From positions 50,458 through 114,457 of the forward strand of contig JAQUQI010000001.1 in assembly GCA_028716165.1 (NCBI GenBank): a stretch of 64,000 nucleotides of DNA, read 5' to 3'. The position numbers and the translations under genes were made by a program. Source of the stretch: Candidatus Omnitrophota bacterium (GTDB taxonomy: Bacteria; Omnitrophota; Gorgyraeia; JABMRG01). The notes beneath the pieces were generated by a model. That model made no database searches and was not told where the DNA came from. It saw nothing but the letters and a program-made list of their open reading frames with translations. This document shows positions 10,542 through 64,000 of the stretch, in pieces. Each line of letters starts with the position of its first letter. Within the stretch, counting starts at the first letter, position 1.

Positions 10542-10561
10542 GTTATCGCCTTATAAGATAA

Positions 10562-11551: not shown

Positions 11552-11589
11552 AAAACATTTTTCCCTTCATTTATACGCTATATTTGATA

Positions 11590-12218: not shown

Positions 12219-12246
12219 CACACAACCTCCTCTTTGGTTATAATGG

Positions 12247-44216: not shown

Positions 44217-44334
44217 TAACATACGTAGACGTCCTATTTGGTAACACCCTACATATAGCGGGGCGCTAAAAGTAAAAAGTTTTTTATATCCATTTGGCAG
44301 GGTGTAACTAAATAGGACGCCTGCTGATACCTAC
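44217..44334. repeat. copy 1 of a ~118-bp repeat with ~26-bp terminal inverted repeats (MITE-like)
   Basis: Near-identical copies at 58036-58152, 59220-59335 and 63213-63337. Termini are GTAGACGTCCTATTTGGTAACACCCT and AGGGTGTAACTAAATAGGACGCCTGC. Confidence 0.85.
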
Positions 44335-46895: not shown

Positions 46896-48816
46896 TCAAA
46901 AATCTTGAAGGCGTTTTACTCCATCCTCGATATTTTTCAGAATAGCTAAGTGTTAAACTTTTTATTGCCCGCGTAATCGCGACAAAGCAATTCCTCCGCT
47001 CTTCTTCCATTTCAGGACTCTTCTCGCCTTTTTGTTTACTCTGAAAAGATGGCAACTCATCTTCAACTAGACCAATCAAATATACATGATCAAATTCTTT
47101 GCCCTTTGCTCCATGTATTGACATAAGAACTACAGTATCGGGTTTTATCTTTGATTCTTTCGAGTGCAATTGTAATTCTTGCAAAAAGACCTCCAAAGAT
47201 AATTCTGTTCCAAGAGAAGCCGCTATTTCCTTAACAAGATCGTCCCAGACGGCGCGCTCTTCGTCATATCCCGCAAATACTTCTATACCTTGAGCGTTTG
47301 AAGCCACGTCTGGATTTTTTATCAGCTTGTCAAACCAGCTGATTGCATTCTTACAAAATAAACGGAAGTTCTTTTCGCCACCAATGAAGGCGAATACCTC
47401 AGCAATAATCTCTTTGGTTAAAACATCGCTACTCTTCTGCTCAGCAAATCTCATCCAATTTTGCAAGAAACCCAACGTCGAAGATTGCGCTTGCGTTACA
47501 ACTTCATCGGGGTCAATCTCAATGCCAACAAGTTGCTTAAATGCACCACACAAGGAATCTAAACTTGCCTTATCCTGCCGATTACTAGCAAGCCTTAAGA
47601 CCGAATGTAACCATACAAAAGGCGAACTAATAAACTCATCTTTCCTCTGCGCCACAACCGCAGGAATACCTTGATCTTGCAGTCCCTTAAAGGCCCCGTC
47701 TAATAACTTTCTGTTTCTGGCTAAAATAACAACAGATCCAAGCTGATTCGAGTAGCATTTTTTAATATCTTCACCAACGCCTTTTGCTTCTGTTTCAAAT
47801 TCAGGGAAGCGAGACAACAAACGCACCACATCCGCGCACTTACTAATTGGCTTATCTGCTAAAAGTGGTTTCTTCCCCGGAGATCTTAAAAAGTTATTAC
47901 TGATCAAATTATTCGCAATTGAAACAACCTCCGGAGGGCATCGATAATTCGTGGGCAACTGTAAAATTTCAGGGGAATAATCTTGAACAAATTGCTCGAT
48001 TCGCTTATGGCTCGCGCCGTTCCACTGATAAATAATCTGGTCATCATCAGCCACAATAAAAAAGTTTTTGTACTGATCCTCGGATAACGCTCTAATTAAT
48101 TTGTATTGTGCCTCATTTGTATCTTGAAATTCGTCTATGCATATGTAAGGATAAACTGTTCTATAACGTTTGGCAAAAGCCGGGAATTTCGTAAAAAGCC
48201 GGTAGGCCTGGAAAATCAACGAACTAAAATCTAAAGAATTTCGTCTTGATAATGCTTCTTCATAGGCTGGATAAACAACGGCCATGCGTTTTCCGAATTC
48301 CTTATCTCGAAAAACATCAACACACTGAGATGGCTCAATAAGAAACGATTTTAATCTTTGTATAACCGGCAATGTTTTCTTGTCGAGGTCAGATATTATA
48401 TCGCTTGTCTTCTTTGCTTCAGTTACCGCATCATCTAAAACGGCTTGAAGATCATAATCTTGAGAATAAATCTGAAAGTTTGGATTAATCCCTAAATGCA
48501 CTCCATGTTGACGTAATACATCCGCACAAAACGAATGGAATGTTCCTAAAAATAATCTGCTTTCTTGCCCCGGAACAAGATTAGCCACTCTTAAGCGCAT
48601 TTCGTCTGCGGCTTTATTAGTAAAAGTCAGGCCAAGAATTCTAAAATTCTTATCCTGACTTTTATCAAGAATCTTCGCTATACGACAGGTTAAAACTCTC
48701 GTCTTCCCAGACCCGGGGCCTGCAAGCACCAATAATGCCTCATCACCCCACTCAGCGGCTTTCTTCTGAACAAGACTTAATTTCTGCCATGCATTATCCA
48801 AGTCATTATTCGCCAT
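46870..48816 (-). CDS. gajB: UvrD/PcrA-like SF1 helicase (Gabija GajB-like)
   Basis: Walker A AGPGSGKT and helicase motifs (DEFQDTN, YRCPPEV). Immediately downstream of the OLD-family gene. Confidence 0.6.
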   Translation of the reverse strand: MANNDLDNAWQKLSLVQKKAAEWGDEALLVLAGPGSGKTRVLTCRIAKILDKSQDKNFRILGLTFTNKAADEMRLRVANLVPGQESRLFLGTFHSFCADVLRQHGVHLGINPNFQIYSQDYDLQAVLDDAVTEAKKTSDIISDLDKKTLPVIQRLKSFLIEPSQCVDVFRDKEFGKRMAVVYPAYEEALSRRNSLDFSSLIFQAYRLFTKFPAFAKRYRTVYPYICIDEFQDTNEAQYKLIRALSEDQYKNFFIVADDDQIIYQWNGASHKRIEQFVQDYSPEILQLPTNYRCPPEVVSIANNLISNNFLRSPGKKPLLADKPISKCADVVRLLSRFPEFETEAKGVGEDIKKCYSNQLGSVVILARNRKLLDGAFKGLQDQGIPAVVAQRKDEFISSPFVWLHSVLRLASNRQDKASLDSLCGAFKQLVGIEIDPDEVVTQAQSSTLGFLQNWMRFAEQKSSDVLTKEIIAEVFAFIGGEKNFRLFCKNAISWFDKLIKNPDVASNAQGIEVFAGYDEERAVWDDLVKEIAASLGTELSLEVFLQELQLHSKESKIKPDTVVLMSIHGAKGKEFDHVYLIGLVEDELPSFQSKQKGEKSPEMEEERRNCFVAITRAIKSLTLSYSEKYRGWSKTPSRFLIEMGLLNE

Positions 48817-48817
48817 T

Positions 48818-50734
48818 TTATCTCCCCAATGCCATGGAATCTTTTACTAAAGCAGAAAGAAAGTCGGGTACCCGATCTCCCTGCATATTTTTTCCCCGAA
48901 GTTTAGAAATCAACGCGTATGCATAGCCCACTTTATCTTTTCGGATAAGCGCTAATATTTCATTCCCATATTCAGCATCACCGGGCTTATTTTTTAACTT
49001 ATTGCCATTCCCCGTGATGAGCTCCGCATACTCAGCAACAAAACCATTTTTAATTAAGAATTCTTCTAAATCTTTACACGAATTAGGCCACAGCCTAATC
49101 GCGGTCTTAATTTGATCATCGCTGACACCACGATTCTTTACTTCTTTGATCGAATTCTTCCCCTGTTCATCGGTATCACACAGCATTAACCACGGAAAGG
49201 CAAATATTCGTGCTAACCCTACAAACAAACCAGCCGATCCATTATTTCTGTAATCAATTAAAGCAATGCCGTTGCAATCGAAAGACTGACCTAAAACTTC
49301 CGAGAAATAACGTACTATTGGATATTCTGATTGCCCTTCGCATAGAAGCCATGCCCGAGCAAAAAGAATTTCGCCTCTGATCCGCTTGACACATGTTTCT
49401 AACTTAATGAGATCTTGATCTGTTAAATGCAGACATGACTCCTCATATAAACTTTTGAGGTTTCCATGCAAATCAGTTTCGCCAGAATACATTGTTAAAA
49501 GCGACCGATATTCACTCTCTTCCATTTTCCCATTCAACGTTAATATCGATGTGGTCGAATCATAATGATACTTGGCAGATGATTGAGAACAAAAATTTTC
49601 TAATCCATCTTTGACCGGAAGCTTCACTGAAAATGAACGTTTAATACAATAAACATTAGATGCATTGTCGCCTCTCCTGAACAATCTAATGTCTTGGAAA
49701 GGAATTTCTTGAATAAAGTGGGGCGAATGAGAGGATATTATTTTTTGTGTCTTCAATTCGCATAAATTAGCGGCAAGCGCACGAATAGCTTGCGGATGCA
49801 AATGCGCCTCTGGCTCTTCCAATGTCAAAATAGCCTCTGTTTCTGATTCAAATGATGGCTTCAAAAGAATTTCAATATAAGCATAAAAAAGAAATAATAC
49901 AGTTAGACTTTGAATTCCTTGGCCATGACGGAGTAAAGGAATATCAATATCACTGCCCTTGGGCTTAATAACTACCTCTGATTTCGACATCAAATCCCAA
50001 GGCTTTAAAGGCACCGCCTGAATTGATGTATTACTGCCATCTCCAAAAGCCATAATTTTTTGGGCATTAGCAAAAGACGATCTAAATTTCTCAAGTCGAG
50101 GATCTGCCTTTAATAGATCCTTATTAATTTTCAGCAGATCTTCTCCGAGCGTTCTTCGCTGTTCATCACTAATCTTTAAATCTTTAAGAAATTTTCCCCA
50201 GTACTGCGACCTGACGGAAAACTCCTCGTCAGCATCCCGCAAAGCAGATAATGCGAATATTCGGATATAAGTTAAGAAGGCGGTAACATTACTGGCTTTT
50301 ACCTTTAAGACTTGTCCATCGATAGACAAAAATTCCACTCGGGGAGTGATAGTTTTGGTGACGGTGTCAGCTTTACTAGATAATCGTATACCGATAGAAT
50401 CGATATCTTTTATTGGATCCGTCTGGATAATGTCCTGAAGCGATTGAGATAACGATTCCGGCCATTCATCAGACTTGTCCTCGCGAAACCATAGCTCTAT
50501 TTCAATGCCTTCACTTGATAAAGGAGAATCCCCTGCTTTTGACATATAATAATCGTATTCATCGAATACAACGTTTTTCCCGTAAGAAGCCCGAGTCAAT
50601 ACGATTCGAATAGCCTCCAATAAAGCAGTTTTGCCGCTATTATTTTCTCCAATCAGAACGCAAGTGTCCGTAACGGACATCCGCATATCCTTAAGGCATC
50701 TAAAATTTTTTATAAAAATCTCTCTGAGTTTCAC
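48818..50734 (-). CDS. gajA: OLD-family ABC ATPase with C-terminal TOPRIM nuclease domain (Gabija GajA-like)
   Basis: N-terminus MKLREIFIKNFRCL...GENNSGKT is an OLD/RecF-like ATPase. The C-terminal Toprim has a glutamate in LLCEGQSE and a DTDEQG motif. 638 aa. Confidence 0.6.
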   Translation of the reverse strand: MKLREIFIKNFRCLKDMRMSVTDTCVLIGENNSGKTALLEAIRIVLTRASYGKNVVFDEYDYYMSKAGDSPLSSEGIEIELWFREDKSDEWPESLSQSLQDIIQTDPIKDIDSIGIRLSSKADTVTKTITPRVEFLSIDGQVLKVKASNVTAFLTYIRIFALSALRDADEEFSVRSQYWGKFLKDLKISDEQRRTLGEDLLKINKDLLKADPRLEKFRSSFANAQKIMAFGDGSNTSIQAVPLKPWDLMSKSEVVIKPKGSDIDIPLLRHGQGIQSLTVLFLFYAYIEILLKPSFESETEAILTLEEPEAHLHPQAIRALAANLCELKTQKIISSHSPHFIQEIPFQDIRLFRRGDNASNVYCIKRSFSVKLPVKDGLENFCSQSSAKYHYDSTTSILTLNGKMEESEYRSLLTMYSGETDLHGNLKSLYEESCLHLTDQDLIKLETCVKRIRGEILFARAWLLCEGQSEYPIVRYFSEVLGQSFDCNGIALIDYRNNGSAGLFVGLARIFAFPWLMLCDTDEQGKNSIKEVKNRGVSDDQIKTAIRLWPNSCKDLEEFLIKNGFVAEYAELITGNGNKLKNKPGDAEYGNEILALIRKDKVGYAYALISKLRGKNMQGDRVPDFLSALVKDSMALGR

Positions 50735-50776: not shown

Positions 50777-51304
50777 CTACACCGCCTCAAATACTCTTAT
50801 CTTATTCCGTACTTCTTCGAACATAACGTATTCGGGCCCCTTTGCCGTATCCCAATCGATTCCCTTATTCTTAAACCTTGGATCTGCACCTATCTCTATG
50901 TACATTTGATGATTACTTAGTTTGAACAAGACTTTACTTGCTTTTTCCAACAAAAAGAGATTCCGCGCAATTTCTTGAGTTTGCAATTTGTGCGCAATAT
51001 TGTGCGCTAAATCATTGCGATGTTCCCTCAATTCCTGAATAATCGAAACGTCATCAGAATCTATAATCTTCATAAAATCACGTAAATATAAAAGACAAGC
51101 TTCAAACTCATTCTTATGCCGAATTAAAACATCGTCTTCGTAAGACTTAAACGGCCCCCCTTCAGAAAACGTCATGTGCCAATAGAACGTTTTAATTGGC
51201 TTTACGATGAGACTTTTAACTAGTTCGAACGCAACTAAGATCAACCCAGCATAAGCGAGTGTTTGTGTAATCTCTCCATTTGTCAAATCACTAATTTTAT
51301 TCAT
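50777..51304 (-). CDS. hypothetical protein with N-terminal TM helix and HEPN-like Rx4H motif
   Basis: 175 aa with EHRNDLAHN. Sits between res and gajA. Confidence 0.35.
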   Translation of the reverse strand: MNKISDLTNGEITQTLAYAGLILVAFELVKSLIVKPIKTFYWHMTFSEGGPFKSYEDDVLIRHKNEFEACLLYLRDFMKIIDSDDVSIIQELREHRNDLAHNIAHKLQTQEIARNLFLLEKASKVLFKLSNHQMYIEIGADPRFKNKGIDWDTAKGPEYVMFEEVRNKIRVFEAV

Positions 51305-51482: not shown

Positions 51483-54398
51483 TTAAAACAGGGTGCCCTG
51501 AATCATATTCTTGGTTATCTTTAGATAATTAAAAATCTCAAGAATGTTGGCTCCCTGATCCCGCATGCTATAGAACGTATTTTCGCCCACCAGCACATAT
51601 TCCCACTCCGCACCCATCCGGTCCTCCGGCTTCAGCTGATTGATCCTCTCGACCCAGTCGATGGTTGCCAGCTGCTTGAGCTTTACGTTTTCAACCGAAA
51701 TCTTATCCTGCCCCTTGGTTTCGACGATATAACTCCTGCCCTTGGTCTTTACTATGAAATCGGGAGAATAAGACGCCAGCATCCCATCGGATCGCACGTA
51801 ATTGATGCGGGCGAAATAGTGATAATTTTCATTAACCTTAACGAACGCCTCTACGTTGGTATCGCTATCGCAAAACTCCATAAAGGCTTTTTCCAGCCCG
51901 CCTTTATTCGAAGGATATGACTGCTTCTCATAAATCGTTTTGACAATATCAAGGCAATACTTCTCTCTCATTCTCAACGTCGCGATTTCCGAGAAGTGCC
52001 GCTTGATAATCGTTGCCTCGGAAATATCAATATTATTCTGCAGTTCAAAAATTGCCTTGCTTATCTGTTTGATAATATGTTCCACAATGCCGGTTTGCGA
52101 AAGCAATAATACGCGCCAATTATTCTCAAAAAAAGGGTCGAACTCCTGCTTGAATAACTTTTCCCGGACAAATTTATCAATCGCCCTGGCAACCTCGACC
52201 TGATTAACCTGCATAGAGGGATATTCTTTTGTCTTGCGCGCGCTTACCTTAACAATCATTGTAGAAACAGCATTAACGATCTTCCCGATAAACTCGTTAT
52301 AGCTCTTTGAATTAAAAACGTCTGCCTTGACCTCATAATCACCGAAGCGGGTCTTGACCGTCATCTCTTCGGAGTAAAAGATATCGCCGCCCTTAGGCAC
52401 CATCTTTTTGAGCTGTTCCAACCCATAAAAATCGAACGATGCCAGTTTGTCAGCGTCGATCTCCGTAGGCATAAGGTTCTCTTCCCGGTCAATAAGAATA
52501 ATCGGGAAATACAAATCGTAGTCCTTGTAATTGCTCTTGAGCCCTACGTTTATGATGTCGCCCAGGACATCCGTTCTGTCTTTGGGTTCGGTCTCGATCA
52601 CTGGCGCCTCTTTGATTAACTCATCATAAAATTCTATGAATGCCGGATGCTCAATAATACTTAAAATATCCATGCAATTCTTAGGCTCTTGTTTCTTCTG
52701 AAGAAGAGCAGTTCTATTTTCGTCCTTGCTTTCCTGATATTCCGGCTCGCGCCACATAAGCCGTAGGCCCCGCCCAATAACCTGCTCAAGAAGAATAGGC
52801 GCCTGGCTTGAGCGCAAAGGCACGGTAACGCAAATATTGTTGATATCAAACCCCTCACGTAACATCAAAACCGAAATAATCACTTTCGGCTGAGGATGCT
52901 TGTCCACATTAAAAAGCCGCTGCTTCAGCTGAAACCACTCATCCTGCGGCACGGACCCTTTTTTATCAGAGTCGATCTGCGCTACGTCCTTTTCATCCAG
53001 GCCCTCGTACTTTGTCAGATACTCCACGACATGCGGCGTAACTTTAGTATCCTCGCAAACAACGAACATCTTGGGATATTTTGAACATTCGGCCCCATCT
53101 GTTAACGAGGTAAAATGTTCCTCCAGTTTTTTAAGCTTGGCTAAACCCGCCCTCAGCATTGTCTTTTGTCCATTAGATAATCCTACGACCTCCCGACCGT
53201 CACGCTCCGCCTTGAAATCCAAAGGCAACGAGGCAATCTCCTTGCGACGGTCAAGCGCTATGGTCTTGACAAGGCCCATGTGGATTGCCGTACGAAGGTC
53301 GAAATCAATCACTATGTGTGGGAAATAGTGCTTCGTTCTTTTCTGACCGCTCCCGGTCACATCATATGGTGTAGCTGAAAAGTCTATCTGGATAAATTTC
53401 GATCCTTTGTCTGAACTGATATAAGAAAGGCTTCGCTGCCACTCAACCTCCTGAATATCGCCATACGTCTTGTTCTCATGGATATGGTGGGCTTCATCAT
53501 TGATAACAACTAAATCTTTTAACCTCTTCAAAAACTCAAGCTCATTGCCTTTAAGATACTGATTGTCCAGCGTCTCCAAGGAATGACCTGCGGATATTCC
53601 CGGCCGTATCGGCAGAATATCATCAACGATTTTGCTCGGATCTTCTAATGGTGAAATCTCGACAGATTCTTCATCATCAAGGCCTGACAGCAAATGCCAG
53701 TTTGTTATGGCGATAAGGCCGTCGCCCGTAACTTTTCTGCCGATTTCTTCCTTCCTGCAAACACTGCTCTGGATAAAGCCAAAAATCTCCTCGCTAAACC
53801 AGGGAGGAATAAATAAGGCCTCGTACTGCTTGAAGTCCGAAGATAAGAAACTACGCTGCCCTTCCTCATCCTCCTTGCCCAGATACGCATCCAATAGCCG
53901 CTCGTAAACAATCAGCCCCGGAGCCACAAGAAGAAAATTCTTGGAATACCAGCCGCTTAGCGCTTCTTCATGTTTCGCGTTTAGATACTGCCAAATGAGA
54001 AGCGCGTGCATTACCCAGGTTTTTCCGGTTCCGGTAGCCATTTTCATCGCGTACTTGGGATGCTGATATTTTGCCTTTTTAAGCTCGACCTTGTCCATCT
54101 CGGCAAGTATCTCGTCATCCACAAGGGAATACATATCAAAGACCGTTGCGGGCTTCAAAACCTCATGCACATAAATGGTATTCATGATGGCCTGCTTCTG
54201 GCCGATATGAAAGTTGATATTGCGGTTCTCGCAGAAATTATCCTCAAACCAGAACCGTAAGAGATCCCTGGTTACGGGGGTGAATTTTTCGATAAAAGCA
54301 GGGTCCTTAAGATTGAACTGGCTGTTAATGCTATCGGTAAGCCTTCTGGCAAAACGAAGCGGGATGTCCCGGGTGCCGATGTTAAGAGGCGTGGGCAT
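51483..54398 (-). CDS. res: Type III restriction enzyme, Res subunit (SF2 helicase-nuclease)
   Basis: Walker A TGTGKT and DEAH box VINDEAHH. 971 aa. Its start overlaps the mod stop. Confidence 0.8.
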   Translation of the reverse strand: MPTPLNIGTRDIPLRFARRLTDSINSQFNLKDPAFIEKFTPVTRDLLRFWFEDNFCENRNINFHIGQKQAIMNTIYVHEVLKPATVFDMYSLVDDEILAEMDKVELKKAKYQHPKYAMKMATGTGKTWVMHALLIWQYLNAKHEEALSGWYSKNFLLVAPGLIVYERLLDAYLGKEDEEGQRSFLSSDFKQYEALFIPPWFSEEIFGFIQSSVCRKEEIGRKVTGDGLIAITNWHLLSGLDDEESVEISPLEDPSKIVDDILPIRPGISAGHSLETLDNQYLKGNELEFLKRLKDLVVINDEAHHIHENKTYGDIQEVEWQRSLSYISSDKGSKFIQIDFSATPYDVTGSGQKRTKHYFPHIVIDFDLRTAIHMGLVKTIALDRRKEIASLPLDFKAERDGREVVGLSNGQKTMLRAGLAKLKKLEEHFTSLTDGAECSKYPKMFVVCEDTKVTPHVVEYLTKYEGLDEKDVAQIDSDKKGSVPQDEWFQLKQRLFNVDKHPQPKVIISVLMLREGFDINNICVTVPLRSSQAPILLEQVIGRGLRLMWREPEYQESKDENRTALLQKKQEPKNCMDILSIIEHPAFIEFYDELIKEAPVIETEPKDRTDVLGDIINVGLKSNYKDYDLYFPIILIDREENLMPTEIDADKLASFDFYGLEQLKKMVPKGGDIFYSEEMTVKTRFGDYEVKADVFNSKSYNEFIGKIVNAVSTMIVKVSARKTKEYPSMQVNQVEVARAIDKFVREKLFKQEFDPFFENNWRVLLLSQTGIVEHIIKQISKAIFELQNNIDISEATIIKRHFSEIATLRMREKYCLDIVKTIYEKQSYPSNKGGLEKAFMEFCDSDTNVEAFVKVNENYHYFARINYVRSDGMLASYSPDFIVKTKGRSYIVETKGQDKISVENVKLKQLATIDWVERINQLKPEDRMGAEWEYVLVGENTFYSMRDQGANILEIFNYLKITKNMIQGTLF

Positions 54399-56305
54399 TA
54401 CTTCACCTCCTCGATAACCGCGCTTTCAAAGCCAAAGACATCAACGGCTTTTATGCAAACCCTGCGCTTATGTTTCAGTTTCGGGACGCGCAGTTTGGTG
54501 TTTCTTACCACGCGCATCGGGTCATCATCCACCTCGGTATTGCCGCGATAATCCTGCCACTTGCTCCTAAAAACCTCTCCGTCATAATCCGGGTCTATAC
54601 TCCAATACTCGATCAGGGCCAGGGGATCCCTGGCGATTATTTCCTGCAATTTCTCCTTGTCTTTCTCCTCAAGCGGCAGCGCATCCGGAGAAAGAAGCAC
54701 ATAATTATCAAGCTTGACGGAAATTTCCTCTTCTTCCTTATTGAGCTCTTCCATATGAACCGGCTTAACGGAAAGATACTGCAGTGATGAAAAGCGTATT
54801 TTCCCACCCTTGATTAATTTCTGGTATGATGACTTGGTTTTAAGCCTATCAAGTAAATCTGGAGGAATAACAAGCACTTCAATATGCGGGTCATTAAGAT
54901 TTGCTATAACCTGCCCGATATCGGTTACGAAATTCCATCCCAGCACCACGACCTTCTTCCATCCGCCCATAAAGCTTGCGCGCAATTCCTGTGCCCTCTT
55001 AAGCGTTCCATAGCCGGTTAGCTTTGATGGCGAATCTACCATTACAAGCGTCCGGGACTCCTTAATGTATCCCAGGTTTCTCTGGGTAGGCTCTACATCC
55101 GAGAAGGGAATGGCACCATATAGATTGAGTACCACATGAGCAAGGTCGCTTACACGTCGGAACTCGCTTTTTTCGAATTGCTCTTTCTGGTAATCGCCAA
55201 TGCATTGGTATAAGAATGGTTTTGCGTCTTGATCAATAAGGCGTTTCCGCATAACCATACAGGATGGCTTGCCAATATCAACCGTAATCCAACGTCGCCC
55301 AAGTTTTTCTGCAACAGATCCAGTCGTTCCTGACCCGGCAAAGAAATCCGCGATAATCGAACCTTCTTTTGATGATGCTTTAATTATTCTTTCCAATAGC
55401 CTCTCGGGTTTTTGTGTTTGAAATCCTAAGTGCTCTGGTAATGCATGAAAAACTTGAACTATATTATTTTCTTTTCTATCAATCCATGTCCATACATCAT
55501 CGGCTTTTCTTCCTTCATCTGCATAATAACGCGTTGCGTTATTATTGCCTGACATCCGATATTTTCTACCCTTCTCATCTGTAAAAGGATAGATAGATTC
55601 ATCCTTAACCATTAGACGAATTTCGTTAAAAACATTCTCCGTTCCTTTACAATAAAATAATAGATTATCATGTTTTTTCGCAAATCCATTTTGAGGAGCT
55701 GTTCCTGCCTGATAGTGCCAAATAATTTCATTTCTAAAATTATTTTTCCCAAAAATATCATCCATCAATACTTTTACATAGTGCCCAACATGCCAATCTA
55801 AATGAACATATATTGAACCTTGCTCCGATAAAAGTTCTCGCATCAAGCAAATCCTCGGATAAAGCATCTTAAGATAACTCGCCGTTCCATCCTTCCAAGT
55901 ATCAGAATACGCAAATTGTTCAATGACTGTTGGCTTTTGTTCAATATCGCCGTTAGGCAAGGTAATTTTTGTGCGATAATCAGCTTTGGAATCAAACGGC
56001 GGGTCAATATAAATAAGATCTATTTTGCCGCGCATAGAGGGAAAGGCGGTTGACGGATCACCCGAGAGAAGTGCCTGCATCACTAAAAGATTATCGCCGT
56101 AAATCAAACGATTAAACCACTCCTTTTTATCAATCTCCCTGACGGCACCGCGGAAGAGTCCAGAACGCTCTTTGGACGGCAAAACATATTCATTTGTCTG
56201 CAAAACAATTCTTTCCTTTTCGGAAAGCTCGTTTAAAATCCTCTCCGCCTCCTTTTTTCCTTCGGCTACAATTTTTGGCAGTTGTTCAATTAATGATTCA
56301 GGCAT
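54398..56305 (-). CDS. mod: Type III R-M DNA methyltransferase, Mod subunit
   Basis: DPPF motif (IYIDPPFDSKADY) and a SAM-binding region (FFAGSGTTG). Confidence 0.8.
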   Translation of the reverse strand: MPESLIEQLPKIVAEGKKEAERILNELSEKERIVLQTNEYVLPSKERSGLFRGAVREIDKKEWFNRLIYGDNLLVMQALLSGDPSTAFPSMRGKIDLIYIDPPFDSKADYRTKITLPNGDIEQKPTVIEQFAYSDTWKDGTASYLKMLYPRICLMRELLSEQGSIYVHLDWHVGHYVKVLMDDIFGKNNFRNEIIWHYQAGTAPQNGFAKKHDNLLFYCKGTENVFNEIRLMVKDESIYPFTDEKGRKYRMSGNNNATRYYADEGRKADDVWTWIDRKENNIVQVFHALPEHLGFQTQKPERLLERIIKASSKEGSIIADFFAGSGTTGSVAEKLGRRWITVDIGKPSCMVMRKRLIDQDAKPFLYQCIGDYQKEQFEKSEFRRVSDLAHVVLNLYGAIPFSDVEPTQRNLGYIKESRTLVMVDSPSKLTGYGTLKRAQELRASFMGGWKKVVVLGWNFVTDIGQVIANLNDPHIEVLVIPPDLLDRLKTKSSYQKLIKGGKIRFSSLQYLSVKPVHMEELNKEEEEISVKLDNYVLLSPDALPLEEKDKEKLQEIIARDPLALIEYWSIDPDYDGEVFRSKWQDYRGNTEVDDDPMRVVRNTKLRVPKLKHKRRVCIKAVDVFGFESAVIEEVK

Positions 56306-57393: not shown

Positions 57394-58041
57394 TTAAATT
57401 TCTTTATTGATGTGGTAGTACGAAAATAATTTCCTATTTTTGTCTTTTGGTTCAAATAGTACGAGCATTGAATCATTGCAAGGGCCGAGTATGCCATTAA
57501 TCGAAGTGCAAGGTTTGTATAAAATGCCATCAAAGCCCATATTAAGTAGATATTCTGCAAATTCACCACTTTTTTTATATGACTGTTCGTTTCTTTGAAA
57601 CAAAATATCGAGCGCACTTTGATTTTGAATATCTTTATCAAAGTTAAATATTTTAGCAGATTGGTTAATCTTGAAAGCACCTTTGATTTCCTGTATTGGT
57701 TCTGGAGATGCAATCTGACTTGTCATTCTAGGCCATAAGTCTTGATTAAAATCAGGTTTATTATTATCAACTTTATAGTTCTTGAAATATTCTCCTATTT
57801 CAAAATCGATACGAGCGCAATCTTTAGCAAGATAACATACAGCTTGTTCTTTCGGAGCAAATCGAGTCTTCTTAGAATCTCTTTTAAAGTAAGGCTTCCA
57901 GTTTTTTGATGTTGTTCCACTATACCATTGAGAAACATAAACATGATCATTATGGCCTAATACATATTCTTTAAGATTTGATTCAATAAAAATTTCTTTG
58001 AATTGTGAGTTTTTCATGCTTGTAATCTTATTTGATAACAT
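57394..58041 (-). CDS. RES-domain protein (putative NAD+-targeting toxin)
   Basis: TRFAPKEQAVCYLAKDCARIDFEI (R, E) and GFDGILYKPCTSING...SMLVLFEP (S) resemble the RES domain's three conserved regions. Start taken as ATG at 58041, which lies inside repeat copy 2. Confidence 0.4.
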   Translation of the reverse strand: MLSNKITSMKNSQFKEIFIESNLKEYVLGHNDHVYVSQWYSGTTSKNWKPYFKRDSKKTRFAPKEQAVCYLAKDCARIDFEIGEYFKNYKVDNNKPDFNQDLWPRMTSQIASPEPIQEIKGAFKINQSAKIFNFDKDIQNQSALDILFQRNEQSYKKSGEFAEYLLNMGFDGILYKPCTSINGILGPCNDSMLVLFEPKDKNRKLFSYYHINKEI

Positions 58042-58152
58042 ACGTGGACGTCCTATTTGGTAACACCCTACATATGGCGGGGCGCTAAAAGTAAGAAGTT
58101 TTTTATATCTATTTGGCAGGGCGTAACTAAATAGGACGCCTGCTGATACCTC
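58036..58152. repeat. copy 2 of the ~118-bp repeat
   Basis: Alignment to the 44217-44334 copy. Confidence 0.85.
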
Positions 58153-58183
58153 TATTCTCATATTCACTGTTAAACGATTAATC

Positions 58184-59152
58184 TTATTTTTTTAAACGCT
58201 TCTCGATATCTAAAATGGTTGACCATTCTCGATCATCCAAACAATCAGGCTTTTCTAATGGTAATACTTGATTGCTAAAAATCATATTAAGCAAGCCAAA
58301 CAACTCGCTAAACTTGTATTGCTTAACAACTCTTTGGGCAGTATTTTTTAATGTTTCATAATCTTCTAGTTTCATCCACTGAGGCTTTTCAGCTTTAAGA
58401 AAGTCTATAGCAGATACATAATCGAAGCGACTTTCGGTATTTTGAAACATTACCCTGTAAGCCTCATCTCTCAACTCACGCTTATCTGCCTCTTTGTGTA
58501 AGATTTCATCTAATTTAACTTCTGTCAAATACACAAAAGGTTTCTTTTTGGATATTATTTCACGATAACTTTTAAATTCTGATTTCCCCGTCCAGTAACC
58601 TCTAAGAAATGAACAAATGAGAATAAATAATATATGTATAAGATAAATAACTGATAATAAAAGGATAGACAAAATAGTAGATGAATTTGACTGCGAAAGA
58701 GCTGGTTTACACAAACCATTCTGGTCAGCTATAGTAATATTTTCATCCTGAACATCTGCACCAATTGAGCTAAATATCAGAGTAAAATTACCATCCGGCG
58801 GAAGTTCAGGGTACAGTAAACTGAATTCTGCATCTTTCTTAATTATTTCAGGTTTGTCGGAAGCAAAATTTCTATTAACATCATATTTAATAACTTTTCG
58901 CTTAATAGTTACGCGAACATTTTCTGCTTTTAAGTTACCTAAGTTTTTAATGACTAGCTCTTGGGCAATTACTTTCGCATCTTCTGGTTTAATAGTCTCG
59001 CCCTGAAATGAAGTAATTGATATGCCTTTGGACAAAGTATAACTAACATTGGGTGACTTTTTGTTTAACGCAAATGACAAAATGACAGCGATTAAAGGAA
59101 CTATAATACTTATATTTTTCACAATTTTCATATAACCCTCCTCAAAAATCAT
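58184..59152 (-). CDS. hypothetical membrane protein
   Basis: 322 aa with an N-terminal signal/TM segment and an internal TM. A GAGGAGGG ribosome-binding site precedes an internal ATG (MKIVKNI). Confidence 0.4.
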   Translation of the reverse strand: MIFEEGYMKIVKNISIIVPLIAVILSFALNKKSPNVSYTLSKGISITSFQGETIKPEDAKVIAQELVIKNLGNLKAENVRVTIKRKVIKYDVNRNFASDKPEIIKKDAEFSLLYPELPPDGNFTLIFSSIGADVQDENITIADQNGLCKPALSQSNSSTILSILLLSVIYLIHILFILICSFLRGYWTGKSEFKSYREIISKKKPFVYLTEVKLDEILHKEADKRELRDEAYRVMFQNTESRFDYVSAIDFLKAEKPQWMKLEDYETLKNTAQRVVKQYKFSELFGLLNMIFSNQVLPLEKPDCLDDREWSTILDIEKRLKK

Positions 59153-59219
59153 ACTAAATCATTCATCCATTTTTTTATCTTTCCGATATCAACATCCGTG
59201 AACACAGGATAATTTCTAT

Positions 59220-59335
59220 TAACATACGTAGACATCCTATTTGGTGACACCCTACATATAGCGGGGCGCTAAAAGTAAGGTGTTTTTTATATCCATTTGG
59301 CAGAGTGTAACTAAATAGGACGCCTGCTGATATCT
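59220..59335. repeat. copy 3 of the ~118-bp repeat
   Basis: Alignment to the other copies. Confidence 0.85.
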
Positions 59336-59370
59336 GCAAATCCTTTTTTAAAACCGTTCATTGGCACCCC

Positions 59371-59583
59371 CTATTCGTTACCTTGAATATTTAAACTTTT
59401 AATTTCTTCCAACCCTATGTTTTTATATTCTTCGGGAAGAATCAAATGTTCTGCATTTAAAACAACTATATTTTTGATTATCTGGCCGGACTTTAACACA
59501 ATATCTACTTTTTGATACCCCATGCCGGTTTCTGGGTATTTAAGTAAATATTCAGTCCAGTATTTATTTAGTTTCAGTTTCAT
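59371..59583 (-). CDS. small protein paralogous to the N-terminal domain of the adjacent TNT-like protein
   Basis: 70 aa sharing the PETGMGYQ motif and flanking residues with residues 1-60 of 59584..60246. Confidence 0.4.
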   Translation of the reverse strand: MKLKLNKYWTEYLLKYPETGMGYQKVDIVLKSGQIIKNIVVLNAEHLILPEEYKNIGLEEIKSLNIQGNE

Positions 59584-60246
59584 TTAATTCGCTGGGATTG
59601 TATTGGGTCCAGTTACAGTCTTTTTGGGAGATCCATTTTCAAATAACACCTCTACTCCACCACCAGGTTTTCCATTCGCTGGTTCTACAACTCCAACTCG
59701 AACAGACGTTTTTTCAGGAGGCTGAATAGTAAAAACATAAATTGCAGGCTCATCACTAGGCAAGGCATATCTGTTCATTGCATCACTTCCCGTTCTAACA
59801 TTTCGAGCATCTGCTTCTGTAGTTGCATAAGCTCCGGGTAGTAAACTGCCATCCTCCCCAATACGACGGTCATTCCTATAGGGTGAGAACCTTTTAAAAA
59901 CTTGATCTTTGCCTGTTAAAGAACTAGCGGCTTGACAAGCAGGCACTCCTGCAGATTTTGCAAAATGCCTAGTTTCTCCAAGTTGAAGTCGGCTTCGTCC
60001 AACAACTTTTAATGTTCGAATGTACCCAGGCCTTTCTGCTTCGTTAAGAATTGCTGAATATGTAAGAAATCGCCTACCCATAATTTTTTCAATTCTTTCT
60101 TCGGGAATAAAAACTTCTGAATTCAGCACTACGCCTTGCGAGGTAGATAAATTACTCATTGAGGCTTCGACATATTGATACCCCATCCCTGTCTCTGGTT
60201 GACTAACTAATTCTCGAATTTGTGTATCAGATAATTTGTACGGCAT
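59584..60246 (-). CDS. two-domain protein: N-terminal PETGMGYQ-motif domain + C-terminal TNT-like (NAD+ glycohydrolase toxin-like) domain
   Basis: The C-terminal region (YRNDRRIGEDGSLLPGAYATTEADARNVRTGSDAMNRYALP...GKPGGGVEVLF) resembles the TNT/DUF4237 pattern ending in G-Q-P-G-G-G. This is recalled from memory, not searched. Confidence 0.35.
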   Translation of the reverse strand: MPYKLSDTQIRELVSQPETGMGYQYVEASMSNLSTSQGVVLNSEVFIPEERIEKIMGRRFLTYSAILNEAERPGYIRTLKVVGRSRLQLGETRHFAKSAGVPACQAASSLTGKDQVFKRFSPYRNDRRIGEDGSLLPGAYATTEADARNVRTGSDAMNRYALPSDEPAIYVFTIQPPEKTSVRVGVVEPANGKPGGGVEVLFENGSPKKTVTGPNTIPAN

Positions 60247-60258
60247 ATCATCCCTCCT

Positions 60259-62058
60259 TCAATTTTTCTCTTGCTGTCTTTTAGTTACACAAACTAAAAG
60301 GCAAATACTGAGCCATAAAAGAAATAACGATGAATTACTGCTTATATCTAACGAATTTATCAGACCATGGCAAACCCTATTCCTTAAATTTGGGCCATAC
60401 TTTTTTATGAGGAGCGAACGCATTTCCCATACTAAATCTTTTCCAAAGATAGCTTCTGCGCTCTGGTCATTTAATAATTGATTTAAGTCGCGTTCCTCTT
60501 GCACCCCGCTCGACGAAACCGATGTTGTTTTAAGCCCATTTAAGCCAAAAAGCATCCTTATAGAATTCTCAATCTGGGGGACAATAAAGTGAATAAATGT
60601 CAGATAGTCGCCCTCAAATCCGGCAATCAAAGCCCTCTCAAAGATATCCGTTCGATCTTTTGGCACAAAGATGCTCTTTCCAACTAATTCCTTTATAGTA
60701 TCCCGCCATGATTCCTCTGATTGAAGAAATAAGTCAACACCTCTTTTTATCGTCGTACAAGCCGAAAGACTTTGACCGAGATTATATCCTTTGATTATTT
60801 GCGCCTTAAGGCTACCTTCATAATCCTCAGTCATGCCAGGTATTTTCGCAGTAACGTTTCCCTCATCTTCAATTATGTGGGCACCAATAATTCCTTGCAG
60901 CGGATGCTCTTTAAGCATTTTTTCAGCAGACGCTTTCTCCTGGTCGTAATTAAATGGTCTGTGCAAGGCGGCAAAAGCCTCGATTGCCTCGATTCCTTTC
61001 TTGCCCTGTATTAAGTCGTCAGCGATTTTTATTAATGGGCCTGCGTCAATAGTTGGACTTTTTATCACCTTCATTTGACTGATTGAAATTTTGTTTGCTT
61101 CCTTCAATTCATGTACTAACTCTTCCGCTCGCTTTTTGTCACCTGCCGCTCGGTATGCGTGAATAGCTTGCTCAATCCTATGTGCCAAGTTTAAGCCGTC
61201 ACAACCTTGAGGAGTCTTAAAAGCCTGTGCTTCGTCTTCCCAATGTTTAGCTATGGCTAACTTTGCTTCCTTTGCCTTTTCAGGCTTGTCCGCATAACTA
61301 TAACATGTTGCCGCATATTCATAGTATTTTCGAGGGGCATCACAACCGGGAGAAATTGGAAAACCTTTGGCAATTTCTACCGCCTTCCCAGCAAGCTCTT
61401 CCCAATTGTCAACAAGCTTATTCTCGATTAAAAGCTCTAAAAGCGAAGACGGCCAATAATCCTGTTTCGCATTAAAGCATGTCTTCATGCTTTCTTCAAA
61501 GAGACTCAGAATCTTATCTCGGACAGTCTGCCTTTCTTGAGCTTTCTCACCCAACTCCATAGCTATTTGCGTAGCTCGTTTAAGCCATTCACTTCTCGGC
61601 ACCCAACACTCATCCTTATCCTCGTCAACAGATTGCAAATATGCCTTTACGGCTTTCTGCGCAAACAAATAATTTCTGCGTCTTATCCAAAGGACATCAC
61701 TAATTCTGGCAACAAATTGAAGATTAGTAAATACAGTTAATACTTCTTCAAGTTCCGACAATTCTGTGTCGCTCAAATCTTCAGGCATCATTGTTCTTCC
61801 CTGTGGCCCTGACATAAGTGGCCCAAATGGCTGTTTCTCGCCCCATTGAAAAAACATCGAGAAAACGCCCCAAAGTAGCCGCATAAATTCTTCCAATTCC
61901 TTATCATCAGCCTTCTTAGCGGCATCTTGCCTCTGCCTAAACGAAGATAAAAAATCGGTAAACTTCTTTCCCTGAACATCGGCAATAGCCTCTTTACAAG
62001 CACATATTAACTTTTCACTTAATTTTGACATCTTCTTTATCCATCTGCTAAATCTCAT
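60259..62058 (-). CDS. large hypothetical protein with C-terminal HEPN-like motif (DUF4209-like)
   Basis: 599 aa. The C-terminal GPNLRNRVCHGL fits the HEPN Rx4-6H motif. Confidence 0.35.
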   Translation of the reverse strand: MRFSRWIKKMSKLSEKLICACKEAIADVQGKKFTDFLSSFRQRQDAAKKADDKELEEFMRLLWGVFSMFFQWGEKQPFGPLMSGPQGRTMMPEDLSDTELSELEEVLTVFTNLQFVARISDVLWIRRRNYLFAQKAVKAYLQSVDEDKDECWVPRSEWLKRATQIAMELGEKAQERQTVRDKILSLFEESMKTCFNAKQDYWPSSLLELLIENKLVDNWEELAGKAVEIAKGFPISPGCDAPRKYYEYAATCYSYADKPEKAKEAKLAIAKHWEDEAQAFKTPQGCDGLNLAHRIEQAIHAYRAAGDKKRAEELVHELKEANKISISQMKVIKSPTIDAGPLIKIADDLIQGKKGIEAIEAFAALHRPFNYDQEKASAEKMLKEHPLQGIIGAHIIEDEGNVTAKIPGMTEDYEGSLKAQIIKGYNLGQSLSACTTIKRGVDLFLQSEESWRDTIKELVGKSIFVPKDRTDIFERALIAGFEGDYLTFIHFIVPQIENSIRMLFGLNGLKTTSVSSSGVQEERDLNQLLNDQSAEAIFGKDLVWEMRSLLIKKYGPNLRNRVCHGLINSLDISSNSSLFLLWLSICLLVCVTKRQQEKN

Positions 62059-62127: not shown

Positions 62128-63099
62128 TCACCAAGCTGTTACACGATAATCTTTCCCGTCCTTTCCAGTCCCTTCAAAAGTGCGAGGGATTGTCAGGTTA
62201 AAGTTTCTCAATCCTTTTGTAATTTCCATTTTTAAAGATTTGCGCCTTTTCTCATCAAGCAAGGCATAATCAAGTTCTTGCAAAATATATTTTTTTCTGT
62301 CCGCGCTCTTTTGATTGCGTCTTTTTTGATCCCTTAGCAATATTAAAAGTATTATAATTGCTTTTCTTGTATATCGTGAGATAAGGCTTCGATCAGGGTC
62401 ATACGATAAAGATCCTCCTCCATGAACTAATGTGCTTCGTTTATTATAAAATGATTTTAGCTTTTCAAAACTTTCTATCGGGTCGATACCACAAAAGCTG
62501 AGTAAAAAACTCGCTCGTTGTGCTAATTTGTATTTGATATCTATAGGCGCATCATTAAATAGCGCCTCCATGCTAATCATCGCATTAACGAAGCCTTCGT
62601 CACTATGAATAGATTTTTTATTTGCTTCGTGGAAGTATTCTAAGGCCACAGCTAAAAATTTGTTCTGATTAACAATATCAATATACTTATCATGAAGCTT
62701 ACCAATGAACCCCAAGAACTTGTGAGCATATTTTTCTATACCATCCACAGCTTCATTAGGTATAGATGTAGTGATTGAACAGGAAAAAAGTGGTTTCTTT
62801 CCAAGCTCACTTTCGGAAGATATTGATCTCCCACCACCACAAGTTAAATCAGGAGAATTCGGCGTTATCAAACAAGATACCCATAAATAGGGGATTATTT
62901 TATTCTCGTTATCTGTCGTTTTATTATCATCACCTAACAGATAGGCAATAAGATTGTCGCCCTTTTTCTCTAGCAACAACTCGCCTTTTTTTAACCAGAC
63001 TTTTTTCTTCAGATGTACCTGTCTAGGAATTAGCCCATCTATCGTAAAATTCCACTGGTATAACTTTGAATTAACTTTTCCACTCATACCATGCATCAT
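62128..63099 (-). CDS. hypothetical HEPN-motif protein (Abi-like)
   Basis: 323 aa. YNKRSTLVHGGG fits the Rx4-6H HEPN motif. Confidence 0.35.
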   Translation of the reverse strand: MMHGMSGKVNSKLYQWNFTIDGLIPRQVHLKKKVWLKKGELLLEKKGDNLIAYLLGDDNKTTDNENKIIPYLWVSCLITPNSPDLTCGGGRSISSESELGKKPLFSCSITTSIPNEAVDGIEKYAHKFLGFIGKLHDKYIDIVNQNKFLAVALEYFHEANKKSIHSDEGFVNAMISMEALFNDAPIDIKYKLAQRASFLLSFCGIDPIESFEKLKSFYNKRSTLVHGGGSLSYDPDRSLISRYTRKAIIILLILLRDQKRRNQKSADRKKYILQELDYALLDEKRRKSLKMEITKGLRNFNLTIPRTFEGTGKDGKDYRVTAW

Positions 63100-63212: not shown

Positions 63213-63337
63213 TAACATACGTAGACGTCCTATTTGGTAACACCCTACATACTACATATAGCGGGGCGCTAAAAGTAAAAAGTTTTTTATATCCATTTGG
63301 CAGGGTGTAACTAAATAGGACGCCTGCTAATACCTAC
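63213..63337. repeat. copy 4 of the ~118-bp repeat (with 7-bp internal duplication)
   Basis: Alignment to the other copies. ACATACT is duplicated at 63247-63260. Confidence 0.85.
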
Positions 63338-63443: not shown

Positions 63444-64000
63444 TTAGCTCTTTCCATTAGCCATACGCAGTAGATCGTTCTGTGTCTCATAAACGCATGA
63501 TGCTATCAACTTAATAAAATCCGTGTCGCTTTTATGCGCTTTTTCAAGAGCGCTGATGTATTCCGACCGTTTAAGCGGCGGGATTATTGCAATGATGTAT
63601 CCTGCCTGCATAAGCGCCACATTCATTAAAAGTCTGGCCACTCGTCCATTGCCGTCAACAAACGGATGAATAAACACAAATTCTTTATGAAACTTGGCGG
63701 CATAGACAACAGGATGGGTGTCTTTCTTCAAACGGGGCAAATCCTTAATAAATTTCTGCATAATCCCGGGAAGCGCGTCTGGTGTAGGCAAAGGATATTG
63801 AGAACCCGTAATAATAGCCTGAACCTTCCGATACACACCGGCATCTTCTTCTTTGATGCGGTGATAAAAAAGCGCGTGCAACTTTTTGATATCTTCTTCC
63901 GTTATTGTTTTCCCGGTAGCAAGCGCATACATATGATCAAACGCGTCACTGTGCCCCGTGGCCTCGTAATGATCTCTAAGCGGCTTTCCGGCAATGGTGA
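63444..64000 (-). CDS. Fic/DOC family protein (5' end outside window)
   Basis: Fic motif HPFVDGNGRVARL. The frame stays open upstream of the annotated ATG at 63932 to the window edge. Confidence 0.8.
   Translation of the reverse strand, partial: TIAGKPLRDHYEATGHSDAFDHMYALATGKTITEEDIKKLHALFYHRIKEEDAGVYRKVQAIITGSQYPLPTPDALPGIMQKFIKDLPRLKKDTHPVVYAAKFHKEFVFIHPFVDGNGRVARLLMNVALMQAGYIIAIIPPLKRSEYISALEKAHKSDTDFIKLIASCVYETQNDLLRMANGKS

Follow-up and report, generated by a model that had tools for sequence, protein, structure and literature searches.

Effectors that target nicotinamide adenine dinucleotide (NAD+) are central to bacterial immunity and are also widely used as bacterial toxins. To our knowledge, TNT-type domains are known only as secreted NAD+ glycohydrolases (NADases) with immunity proteins that are unrelated to them. 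The catalytic Gln is strictly conserved in the described NADases of this type (TNT Q822, Tne2 Q387, Tse6 Q413, AfNADase Q194, and Rhs1 Q1452) (PMC10539506, PMC6398120, PMC7955114), and two conserved arginines, R757 and R780 in TNT and R129 and R148 in AfNADase, bind NAD+. ADP-ribosyltransferases (ARTs) and cyclases carry a Glu or Asp at the position of this Gln and react through an oxocarbenium intermediate (PMC6398120, PMC7955114, PMC10539506). The fungal TNT NADases need homodimerization for activity (PMC11187862). In a different family of toxins, RpnL is held in check by RpnS, an antitoxin that copies one of its domains, and the system protects against phages (bioRxiv 10.1101/2023.05.02.539157). 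Here, we describe a gene pair, L and S, in a 64,000-nucleotide (nt) stretch of Candidatus Omnitrophota contig JAQUQI010000001.1 (below, the window). L encodes a protein of 220 amino acids (aa) with an N-terminal domain marked by the motif PETGMGYQ and a C-terminal TNT-like domain, and S encodes a 70-aa stand-alone paralogue of the N-terminal domain. At a probability of roughly 0.55, slightly better than even, we read L-S as a toxin-antitoxin or abortive-infection-type conflict module, in which L is an NAD+-directed cytoplasmic effector and S its neutralizer by domain mimicry.

The two open reading frames (ORFs) lie on the minus strand where an earlier note, made from the sequence alone, had placed them (Table 1), and its claim that S is paralogous to the N terminus of L is confirmed. 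BLASTP aligned residues 1-50 of L with residues 1-52 of S at 21 identities in 52 positions (40%; E of 4e-8 in a single comparison), PETGMGYQ occupies residues 17-24 in both proteins, and the paralogy is visible even in the DNA, where 44 nt at 59504-59547 and 60167-60210 are 75% identical. What had to be revised is the extent of the shared domain, put at about 60 aa in the note, which by the secondary structure of the AlphaFold2 model spans approximately residues 1-81. In the family alignment, E18, G20, M21, G22, and Q24 of L are invariant and N42 is nearly so; the loop P-E-x-G-M-G-Y-Q, together with the downstream Asn, is almost invariant in N-terminal domains and S proteins alike. An AlphaFold2 model of S, with a predicted local distance difference test (pLDDT) score of 90, has the same order of elements, beta-alpha-beta3 ... 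beta, as the N-terminal domain.

These two versions of the domain have long gone separate ways. Within a locus, the N-terminal domain and S share 29% identity, against 28% for those of different loci, while S proteins from different loci are 41% and N-terminal domains 34% identical to each other. The nearest neighbor of S was another S in 57 of 57 cases, and that of the N-terminal domain was another N-terminal domain in 55 of 57. Because the identity of N-terminal domain and S within a locus is no higher than that between loci, the duplication is, by this measure, ancient, and both genes have been co-inherited. An apparent compensatory exchange of Tyr between the loops of the two proteins was considered and rejected: L proteins with PEYGMGYQ pair with S proteins with PE[ST]SMG[SA]Q, but an L with PEYRMGYQ pairs with a canonical S, and the exchange is therefore not counted as evidence of contact between L and S.

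A HMMER search of 1.84 billion cluster representatives (50% identity clusters) returned 1,035 proteins at an E of ≤1e-3, 242 of them at ≤1e-30. Nearly all of the best 150 L-family representatives are 200 to 250 aa long, a uniformity that indicates a fixed architecture. Among the GTDB species representatives, 226 relatives of L were found; 80 of their loci were retained, and 83 loci were compared in all. The 80 loci belong to Omnitrophota, Verrucomicrobiota, Acidobacteriota, Gemmatimonadota, Bacteroidota, Gamma- and Alphaproteobacteria, Planctomycetota, Desulfobacterota, Chloroflexota, Actinomycetota, and others. A gene of 62 to 85 aa with the same motif follows L in almost all of the 83 loci, often with an overlap of a few bases. 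The earlier note had proposed looking for such pairs in other genomes, and their recurrence in nearly all of these loci, across many phyla, takes the observation far beyond chance. Several loci that appear to lack S in fact have a divergent one (PESSMGSQ, PETSMGAQ) or one that the gene caller missed.

All-versus-all clustering of the ORFs flanking the pair at the 83 loci revealed no conserved third gene. A DNA methylase was rejected as a candidate for this role, being present at 11 of the 83 loci in variable positions and reflecting defense islands generally. At one locus, the pair stands alone between the genes for glutaminyl-tRNA synthetase and carbonic anhydrase. By the comparison of these loci, L-S is a self-contained, widespread, and probably horizontally mobile two-gene module, of which the four profile libraries and the literature searched gave no description. 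Its genes are adjacent, co-oriented, translationally coupled, co-inherited, and capable of standing alone, as is expected of a toxin-antitoxin or toxin-immunity pair. Plasmids contributed a single relative at an E of ≤1e-3, a distant L-like protein in Rhizobium. This 238-aa hypothetical protein (QND24523.1, on Rhizobium leguminosarum plasmid CP050566.1; L101 2530-3246) has a C-terminal domain with GRYALP...GQAGGGVEV and a degenerate N-terminal motif, and the S gene is not present after it.

A small gene immediately downstream is also the arrangement of immunity genes, and the TNT-type fold described below, together with orphan copies of the small gene that resemble orphan immunity genes (PMC10539506), would suit a secreted polymorphic toxin with its immunity protein, used in bacterial competition like CpnT/IFT or Tne2/Tni2. 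We nevertheless regard this as very unlikely. At about 220 aa, L is short; it has neither a delivery domain, be it Rhs, LXG, PAAR, MuF, or another, nor a hydrophobic N terminus, and the best 150 cluster representatives are of the same short build. The clustering of flanking ORFs brought up no recurrent secretion genes nearby, and the neighbors are anti-phage systems. Furthermore, no known immunity protein shares homology with a part of its own toxin, as S does.

Loci at which only one of the two genes is intact indicate how L and S relate to each other. A metagenome scan for S-type genes, from which we took the 80 loci closest to a phage-borne S, gave 56 loci with L upstream, 20 without, and 4 on contigs too short to tell, so that 20 of the 76 assessable loci lack a detectable L. 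Five of these 20 carry clear remnants of the C terminus of L directly 5' of an intact S, for example, GGEECFFENGTSFGTFKQQTSYGIFYP and, in another case, a remnant with an internal stop. In two more, L is reduced to its first 41 residues, with S after them, and a further two have marginal matches to L of 8 to 9 aa only. If L is toxic and S protective, just such a pattern would be expected, with L inactivated again and again and S retained; this asymmetric decay, in which the toxin is lost and the antidote kept, and the existence of orphan antidotes are hallmarks of such pairs. Loci of the opposite kind, with an intact L and no S, are rare. The contigs of the 68 close S homologues are of the same size as those that bear L homologues. 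We also found two independent proteins in which L and S are fused, of 297 aa (L068) and 317 aa (P0283).

At two Bacteroidota-like metagenome loci (L142 4627-5900 and L149 4670-5927), S without a detectable L lies 3' of a conserved gene pair encoding about 160 aa and 257 aa; in the former, a short remnant of the L C terminus is found between this gene pair and S.

Phages carry S as well. Among the 2.9 million contigs of IMG/VR, L genes occur in one full pair (L085) and once alone (L086), while stand-alone S-type genes of 64 to 70 aa occur in about six phage lineages (L087/L088, L093, L094, L095, L096, and L098), the copy in L093 being truncated to 46 aa. The contigs with stand-alone S genes measure 47 to 186 kb, and no TNT-like sequence was found within 8 kb of these genes. 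Five of the phage S loci (all but L093, which was not scanned) are flanked by genes for UvsX, DNA polymerase, or helicase or by unnamed PHROG families. In other phages, S has become part of a larger protein: it is fused in frame to the prohead protease Peptidase_S78 (L089 3837-4724), forms the N terminus of a 643-aa protein encoded after a portal/MuF-like gene (L097 6491-8422), and forms the N terminus of a protein of at least 312 aa (L090 8001-8939). The junction in L089 repeats VMRIK, as might result from an insertion of S where the protease gene begins. All phage copies are of the S type and none of the N-terminal-domain type, and identities to bacterial S of 77% (L089) and 75% (L090) suggest recent capture by phages. 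Neither L nor a phage-type S was found in GenBank phages.

One AT-rich phage contig encoding a UvsX-like recombinase (L087, IMGVR_UViG_3300005914_000007) has a stand-alone S at 7019-7213 and, 2.7 to 3.6 kb from it, genes for an NMNAT-like (cytidylyltransferase-like) protein and NAMPT at 9920-10825 and 10831-12426. NAMPT together with an NMNAT-like protein is the NARP2 gene set, used against NAD+-depleting defenses (bioRxiv 10.1101/2024.02.11.579819). No NAMPT or NMNAT-like gene was found within 8 kb of the other phage S genes. The carriage of an antidote alone by phages has a described parallel, as phage-borne orphan antitoxin-like genes neutralize DarTG1 (PMC11825919, PMC11481870).

Taken together, the ancient co-inherited duplication, the decay of L, the fusions, and the phage S genes without L point to S as the likely inhibitor of a toxic L, in the direction of the immunity or decoy partner that the earlier note had suggested. 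The same data can be read in another way, which we consider unlikely: S may be a required subunit, co-sensor, or activator, with the N-terminal domain and S jointly recognizing a phage trigger or assembling the active enzyme, and the phage S genes acting as dominant-negative decoys. In this scenario, the same invariant loop (E, G, M, G, Q, and the downstream N) would be kept in both domains at about 30% identity for a shared ligand or partner; the viability of L-S fusions and the small number of L genes without S would also be accounted for. Evolutionary distances of S correlate with those of both the N-terminal and the C-terminal domain of L (partial correlations of 0.54 for S with the C-terminal domain given the N-terminal one, 0.42 for S with the N-terminal domain given the C-terminal one, and 0.22 between the two domains given S), an exploratory result that does not separate the possible binding partners. 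However, repeated loss of L beside an intact S is the signature of a harmful gene with a protective partner and not of obligate subunits, and the capture of S alone by phages best fits an antidote.

With respect to the effector domain, profile, fold, and motif evidence agree. The Pfam TNT family PF14021 matches residues 160-203 of L with an E of 0.014 and 16.3 bits, where the gathering threshold is 27 bits; weak matches to it recur in 45 of 52 diverse family members (best E, 1.3e-4; 13 to 16 bits in the more divergent members), and no other family recurs. The AlphaFold2 model of L, built on a 52-sequence alignment, is confident (pLDDT, 90.2; predicted template modeling score [pTM], 0.86) and joins an N-terminal domain (about 1-81) to a compact C-terminal domain (106-220) through a linker (about 82-105) that is poorly predicted, the pLDDT falling below 50 only at residues 90-97. 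The earlier note had asked how the C-terminal part compares in structure with TNT. When the model was run against the PDB with Foldseek, ranks 1 to 15 were all NAD+-using enzymes of TNT-type or ART fold, and the best match was Tne2, of TNT-type fold (6b12_A; E, 1.5e-3; probability, 1.00; target-normalized TM score, 0.66). The Photorhabdus Rhs toxin Tre23 (6xtd_A) ranks second, thirteen chains of fungal TNT NADases (AfNADase, FoNADase1, and NcNADase) fill ranks 3 to 15, and rank 16 drops to an E of 0.56. No TNT match came from searching PDB sequences with L, the full-length profile, or the C-terminal domain profile.

A tblastn search of plasmid records with the C-terminal domain sequence led to an Rhs protein of Nonomuraea (E of 6e-3, residues 19-110), whose last 123 aa are a bona fide TNT domain (PF14021, 86.8 bits); we used this domain solely as a TNT reference sequence. 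The protein, from Nonomuraea gerenzanensis NZ_LT559118.1 (L102 59-2785), is a YD-repeat/Rhs polymorphic toxin whose C-terminal TNT domain bears WFGQPGGGFQ and whose gene has a small ORF downstream. The comparison by hhalign of the family C-terminal domain profile with this reference gave a probability of 95.4% and an E of 1.7e-8 over 32 columns and pairs ...VEPANGKPGGGVEVLF... of the family with ...VRPWFGQPGGGFQILL... of the reference. In this alignment, GGGVE199V of L stands opposite GGGFQI, with a Glu where TNT has its Gln. Independent, ungapped Pfam alignments of three members place the Glu on PF14021 HMM position 68, and Glu199 is invariant in both family alignments and present in every divergent member read. 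Together with it, R119, T142, T143, R159, Y160, G195, and G197 are invariant in the domain. R119 (in FKRF) and R159 (in RYALP) lie outside the hhalign alignment, which stops short of both columns; the spacing of 40 residues between R159 and E199 is near that in TNT (42) and AfNADase (46).

We regard the C-terminal domain of L as divergently related to TNT, with a TNT-type fold, and not as a member of PF14021. The motifs that the earlier note had quoted from it are all present (R128-I-G-E-D-G133, Y160-A-L-P163, and G192-K-P-G-G-G-V-E-V200). Its designation of L as a TNT-like NADase holds for the fold, on the strength of the recurrent Pfam matches, Foldseek, and hhalign; the NADase label itself is not secured, given the subthreshold score and the Glu in place of Gln. 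From its sequence, L could hydrolyze NAD+ or transfer its ADP-ribosyl group.

A tentative alternative is that the effector does not deplete NAD+ as a hydrolase but acts on a specific target, protein or nucleic acid, as an ART (or as a cyclase or base-exchange enzyme); this would concern the chemistry alone and is compatible with S as the inhibitor. It would explain an invariant Glu in place of the strictly conserved Gln of TNT (PMC10539506, PMC6398120) as the acidic residue that ARTs and cyclases carry there (PMC7955114). Moreover, R119 ... T142-T143 ... E199, all invariant, resembles the R-S-E triad and matches in sequence the order of that ART clade, which has its Arg on strand 1, Ser/Thr-x-Ser/Thr on strand 2, and the catalytic Glu on strand 5, and Tre23, the second-best fold match, is an RNA ADP-ribosyltransferase (PMC8661411). 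On the other hand, the top structural match and all the fungal matches are pure NADases, and the motif GQPGGGx[QE] is that of TNT. No ART family of Pfam matches L, and the likeness of R119 and T142/T143 to the ART triad is one of sequence order. Finally, the ART-fold toxin Tne5, which has the Glu, is still a plain NADase in which the Glu is dispensable (bioRxiv 10.64898/2026.01.26.701734), so that the Glu alone does not settle the chemistry of L.

Considering these data, we propose the following model. The C-terminal domain of L would attack NAD+, by hydrolysis or by transfer of ADP-ribose to a target, and the N-terminal PETGMGYQ domain would be regulatory. S would be translated from the transcript of L, with stop and start codons abutting or overlapping, and would keep L inactive by domain mimicry. 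In one scenario, S pairs with the N-terminal domain of L and thus prevents assembly of the active form; by analogy with the fungal TNT NADases, active only as dimers, a block of L dimerization is plausible. In another, S would take the docking place of the N-terminal domain on the catalytic domain. Infection or another stress would then break the balance between L and S and release L, and phages would counter by carrying their own copies of S. It is the toxicity of L and its use of NAD+, and likewise the binding and inhibition of L by S and the manner in which this occurs, that we infer here. A more comprehensive version, possible but doubtful as a whole, would make L-S an uncatalogued anti-phage module in which a Glu-bearing TNT fold may transfer or cyclize ADP-ribose; control would lie in competition between the N-terminal domain and S, a new small fold, and phages would acquire S and in some cases fuse it to head-morphogenesis proteins.

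Several observations weigh against the reading of L-S as a toxin with a mimic as its neutralizer. Four L genes that appear intact have no S (L052, L062, L066, and the viral L086, 4 of about 85 loci), which means that L is not always lethal without S. As is evident from the L-S fusions, the system can work without degradation of S. In contrast to classical type II antitoxins, S is encoded after the toxin gene and has no DNA-binding domain. Docking of the N-terminal domain on the catalytic domain is suggested by a single indication, the pTM of 0.86 that the model reaches despite a floppy linker. A general link between phage S genes and NAD+ reconstitution genes had to be dropped, as it was seen in one phage lineage only. 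The catalytic Gln that is strictly conserved in TNT is absent from the family of L, and L does not reach the gathering score of PF14021. Neither protein has a match in NCBIfam or PHROGs, nor has S one in Pfam; in PADLOC-DB 2.0, L has no credible match (only mREase_II, at an E of 0.022) and S none. The model of S has no credible fold match (best E, 0.78 in the PDB and 0.15 in BFVD), and S bears no similarity to known NADase immunity proteins. Since the literature searched likewise yielded no mention of PETGMGYQ, no profile, fold, or publication identifies the motif as a known, unrelated domain, an outcome that the earlier note had allowed for. The fusions, the L genes without S, and the lack of a DNA-binding domain in S speak for a stable regulator and against a labile antitoxin; they also raise the possibility of autoinhibition in L.

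The setting of the locus is in line with a role in conflict. By Pfam and PADLOC matches, the minus strand from about 44 kb to the end of the window is a dense defense island (Table 1), and L-S loci elsewhere adjoin TIR, Eco57I, a SocA/Panacea-domain protein, nSTAND and DruA, or a reverse transcriptase with methylases. That L and S form an ordinary housekeeping or regulatory pair with no part in conflict and a fortuitous resemblance to TNT is most improbable, in our judgment. The subthreshold Pfam score, the PDB sequence searches that returned nothing, and the one locus amid housekeeping genes could be cited for it, but the patchy distribution over many phyla, the mobile or defense-island contexts, the agreement of fold, profile, and motif, and the L pseudogenes and phage-captured S genes all speak against it.

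In the window, the TAA stop of L directly abuts the ATG of S. A gap of 12 nt, which contains the GGAGGG, separates the stop of the PDC-S39 gene from the start of L; no promoter-like site was found between the two genes, and L is probably transcribed here from the PDC-S39 transcript. The flanking-ORF comparison showed that this adjacency is not conserved at other loci, and a functional link between L and PDC-S39 was dropped on that account. L is 100% identical to a hypothetical protein on a 301-kb contig of a Candidatus Omnitrophica metagenome-assembled genome.

A 116-nt imperfect-palindrome repeat occurs four times in the window. The three copies that were compared are 74 to 91% identical, the copy near 44.2 kb being known from core-pattern matches only. 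Each lies 30 to 110 nt 3' of a minus-strand gene; the copy at 59220-59335 is 36 nt past S and, with that at 63220-63335, brackets the block of HEPN-Apea-like gene, PDC-S39, L, and S. The ORF at 59175..59339 and the N terminus of that at 57394..58167 are translations of the repeat. It is absent from the 101 loci compared and has no match in Rfam, and its predicted fold is unremarkable. The repeat could be attC-like, related to repetitive extragenic palindromes (REP-like), or a miniature inverted-repeat transposable element; an integron attC fits poorly, as its ends are off the R'/R'' consensus and no integrase was seen nearby.

Table 1. The L-S pair and its surroundings, in coordinates of the window
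Feature	Position	Strand	Basis or remark
L gene, 220-aa two-domain protein, putative toxin/effector	59584..60246	minus	ORF list and homologue family
N-terminal PETGMGYQ domain of L, aa 1-81 (beta-alpha-beta3, two helices, final beta strand)	60004..60246	minus	AlphaFold2 model
PETGMGYQ motif of L, aa 17-24, loop preceding strand 2	60175..60198	minus	sequence, alignment, model
Linker of L, aa 82-105, variable, low confidence	59932..60003	minus	pLDDT 50-68; indel-rich in alignment
Putative TNT-like catalytic domain of L, aa 106-220	59587..59931	minus	Pfam, Foldseek, hhalign
Glu199 codon (GAG), position of the catalytic Gln in TNT-type NADases	59650..59652	minus	profile alignments
S gene, 70 aa, stand-alone paralogue of the N-terminal domain, putative neutralizer/antitoxin	59371..59583	minus	ORF list
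PETGMGYQ motif of S, aa 17-24	59512..59535	minus	sequence
Shine-Dalgarno-like GGAGGG, 5 nt 5' of the L ATG	60252..60257	minus	read from sequence
TIR protein gene, PDC-S66/ThsB-like	46032-46895	minus	
Gabija GajB	46870-48816	minus	857 bits
Gabija GajA	48818-50734	minus	668 bits
HEPN Swt1-like gene	50777-51304	minus	
Type III restriction-modification, Res	51483-54398	minus	
Type III restriction-modification, Mod	54398-56305	minus	
Gene of a ~210-aa protein	57394-58167	minus	weak RES-domain hint (E 0.027), gone once the repeat-derived N terminus is removed
Gene of a 322-aa protein with hydrophobic segments	58184-59152	minus	no family match
PDC-S39 with DUF7380 and DUF4209	60259-62058	minus	394 bits
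Weak HEPN-Apea-like gene	62128-63099	minus	
SoFic/PDC-S04-like Fic gene	63444-63932	minus	
116-nt imperfect-palindrome repeat, four copies	~44217-44332, 58036-58151, 59220-59335, 63220-63335		38-nt arms

If our reading is correct, L-S would add a cytoplasmic, defense-island form to the TNT fold, with a Glu where the absence of an acidic residue has been the explanation for the hydrolysis-only chemistry of TNT. It would also provide a candidate family of phage anti-defense proteins that can be recognized from sequence alone. The module is small (220 plus 70 aa), widespread, and easy to test, and the PETGMGYQ domain is a conserved fold that merits a structure.

Among known systems, the TNT toxins with immunity proteins (Mycobacterium tuberculosis CpnT-TNT/IFT, Pseudomonas protegens Tne2/Tni2, and Serratia Rhs1-CT/RhsI1; PF14021) share with L the predicted fold and the motif ...P.[FN]GQPGGGx[Q/E], upstream of which L has two invariant arginines, and they have, as L does in S, a small gene immediately downstream that is protective, in L-S putatively so. 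However, L has a Glu for the catalytic Gln and scores below the gathering threshold, and it is short, predicted to be cytoplasmic, and without a delivery domain. While the partner of L is a paralogue of its own N-terminal domain, theirs is an unrelated protein with a loop that plugs the active site, and they reside in secretion loci, whereas L-S is found in anti-phage islands. The fungal surface TNT NADases resemble L in fold, and their dependence on homodimers hints at how a domain mimic could inactivate L; unlike L, they are secreted, glycosylated, and eukaryotic, with the catalytic Gln Q194, a thumb domain, and no partner protein. Tre23/Tri23, an ART-HYD1 Rhs toxin that ADP-ribosylates 23S rRNA, demonstrates that a compact fold like that of L can act as a transferase, but it is delivered by a type VI secretion system and has an H-Y-[EDQ] triad (PMC8661411), where L has an Arg at the first position and the TNT-type GGGx[E].

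Two-gene modules of defense islands with an NAD+-using toxin of the ART superfamily are also found in DarTG, RES-Xre, and aRES, which L-S resembles in this respect, and the orphan antitoxins of phages against DarTG1 parallel the phage S-type genes (PMC11825919, PMC11481870). Their antitoxins are of other kinds: DarG, a macrodomain enzyme, undoes the modification, and Xre binds DNA, whereas S is a 70-aa domain with no enzymatic signature. The closest precedent for a neutralizer made of the toxin's own domain, as proposed for S, is RpnL/RpnS. The Rpn toxin is a PD-(D/E)XK nuclease and L a putative NAD+ enzyme, and RpnS, whose translation begins at an internal start, has exactly the sequence of the C-terminal domain of its toxin, whereas S is encoded by a separate gene, with no such internal start, and is a paralogue of the N-terminal domain at 29 to 40% identity. 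L-S would be a second, independent case in which a toxin is under the control of a free-standing copy of one of its domains, the control copy here being a stably inherited paralogous gene and not an internal translation product.

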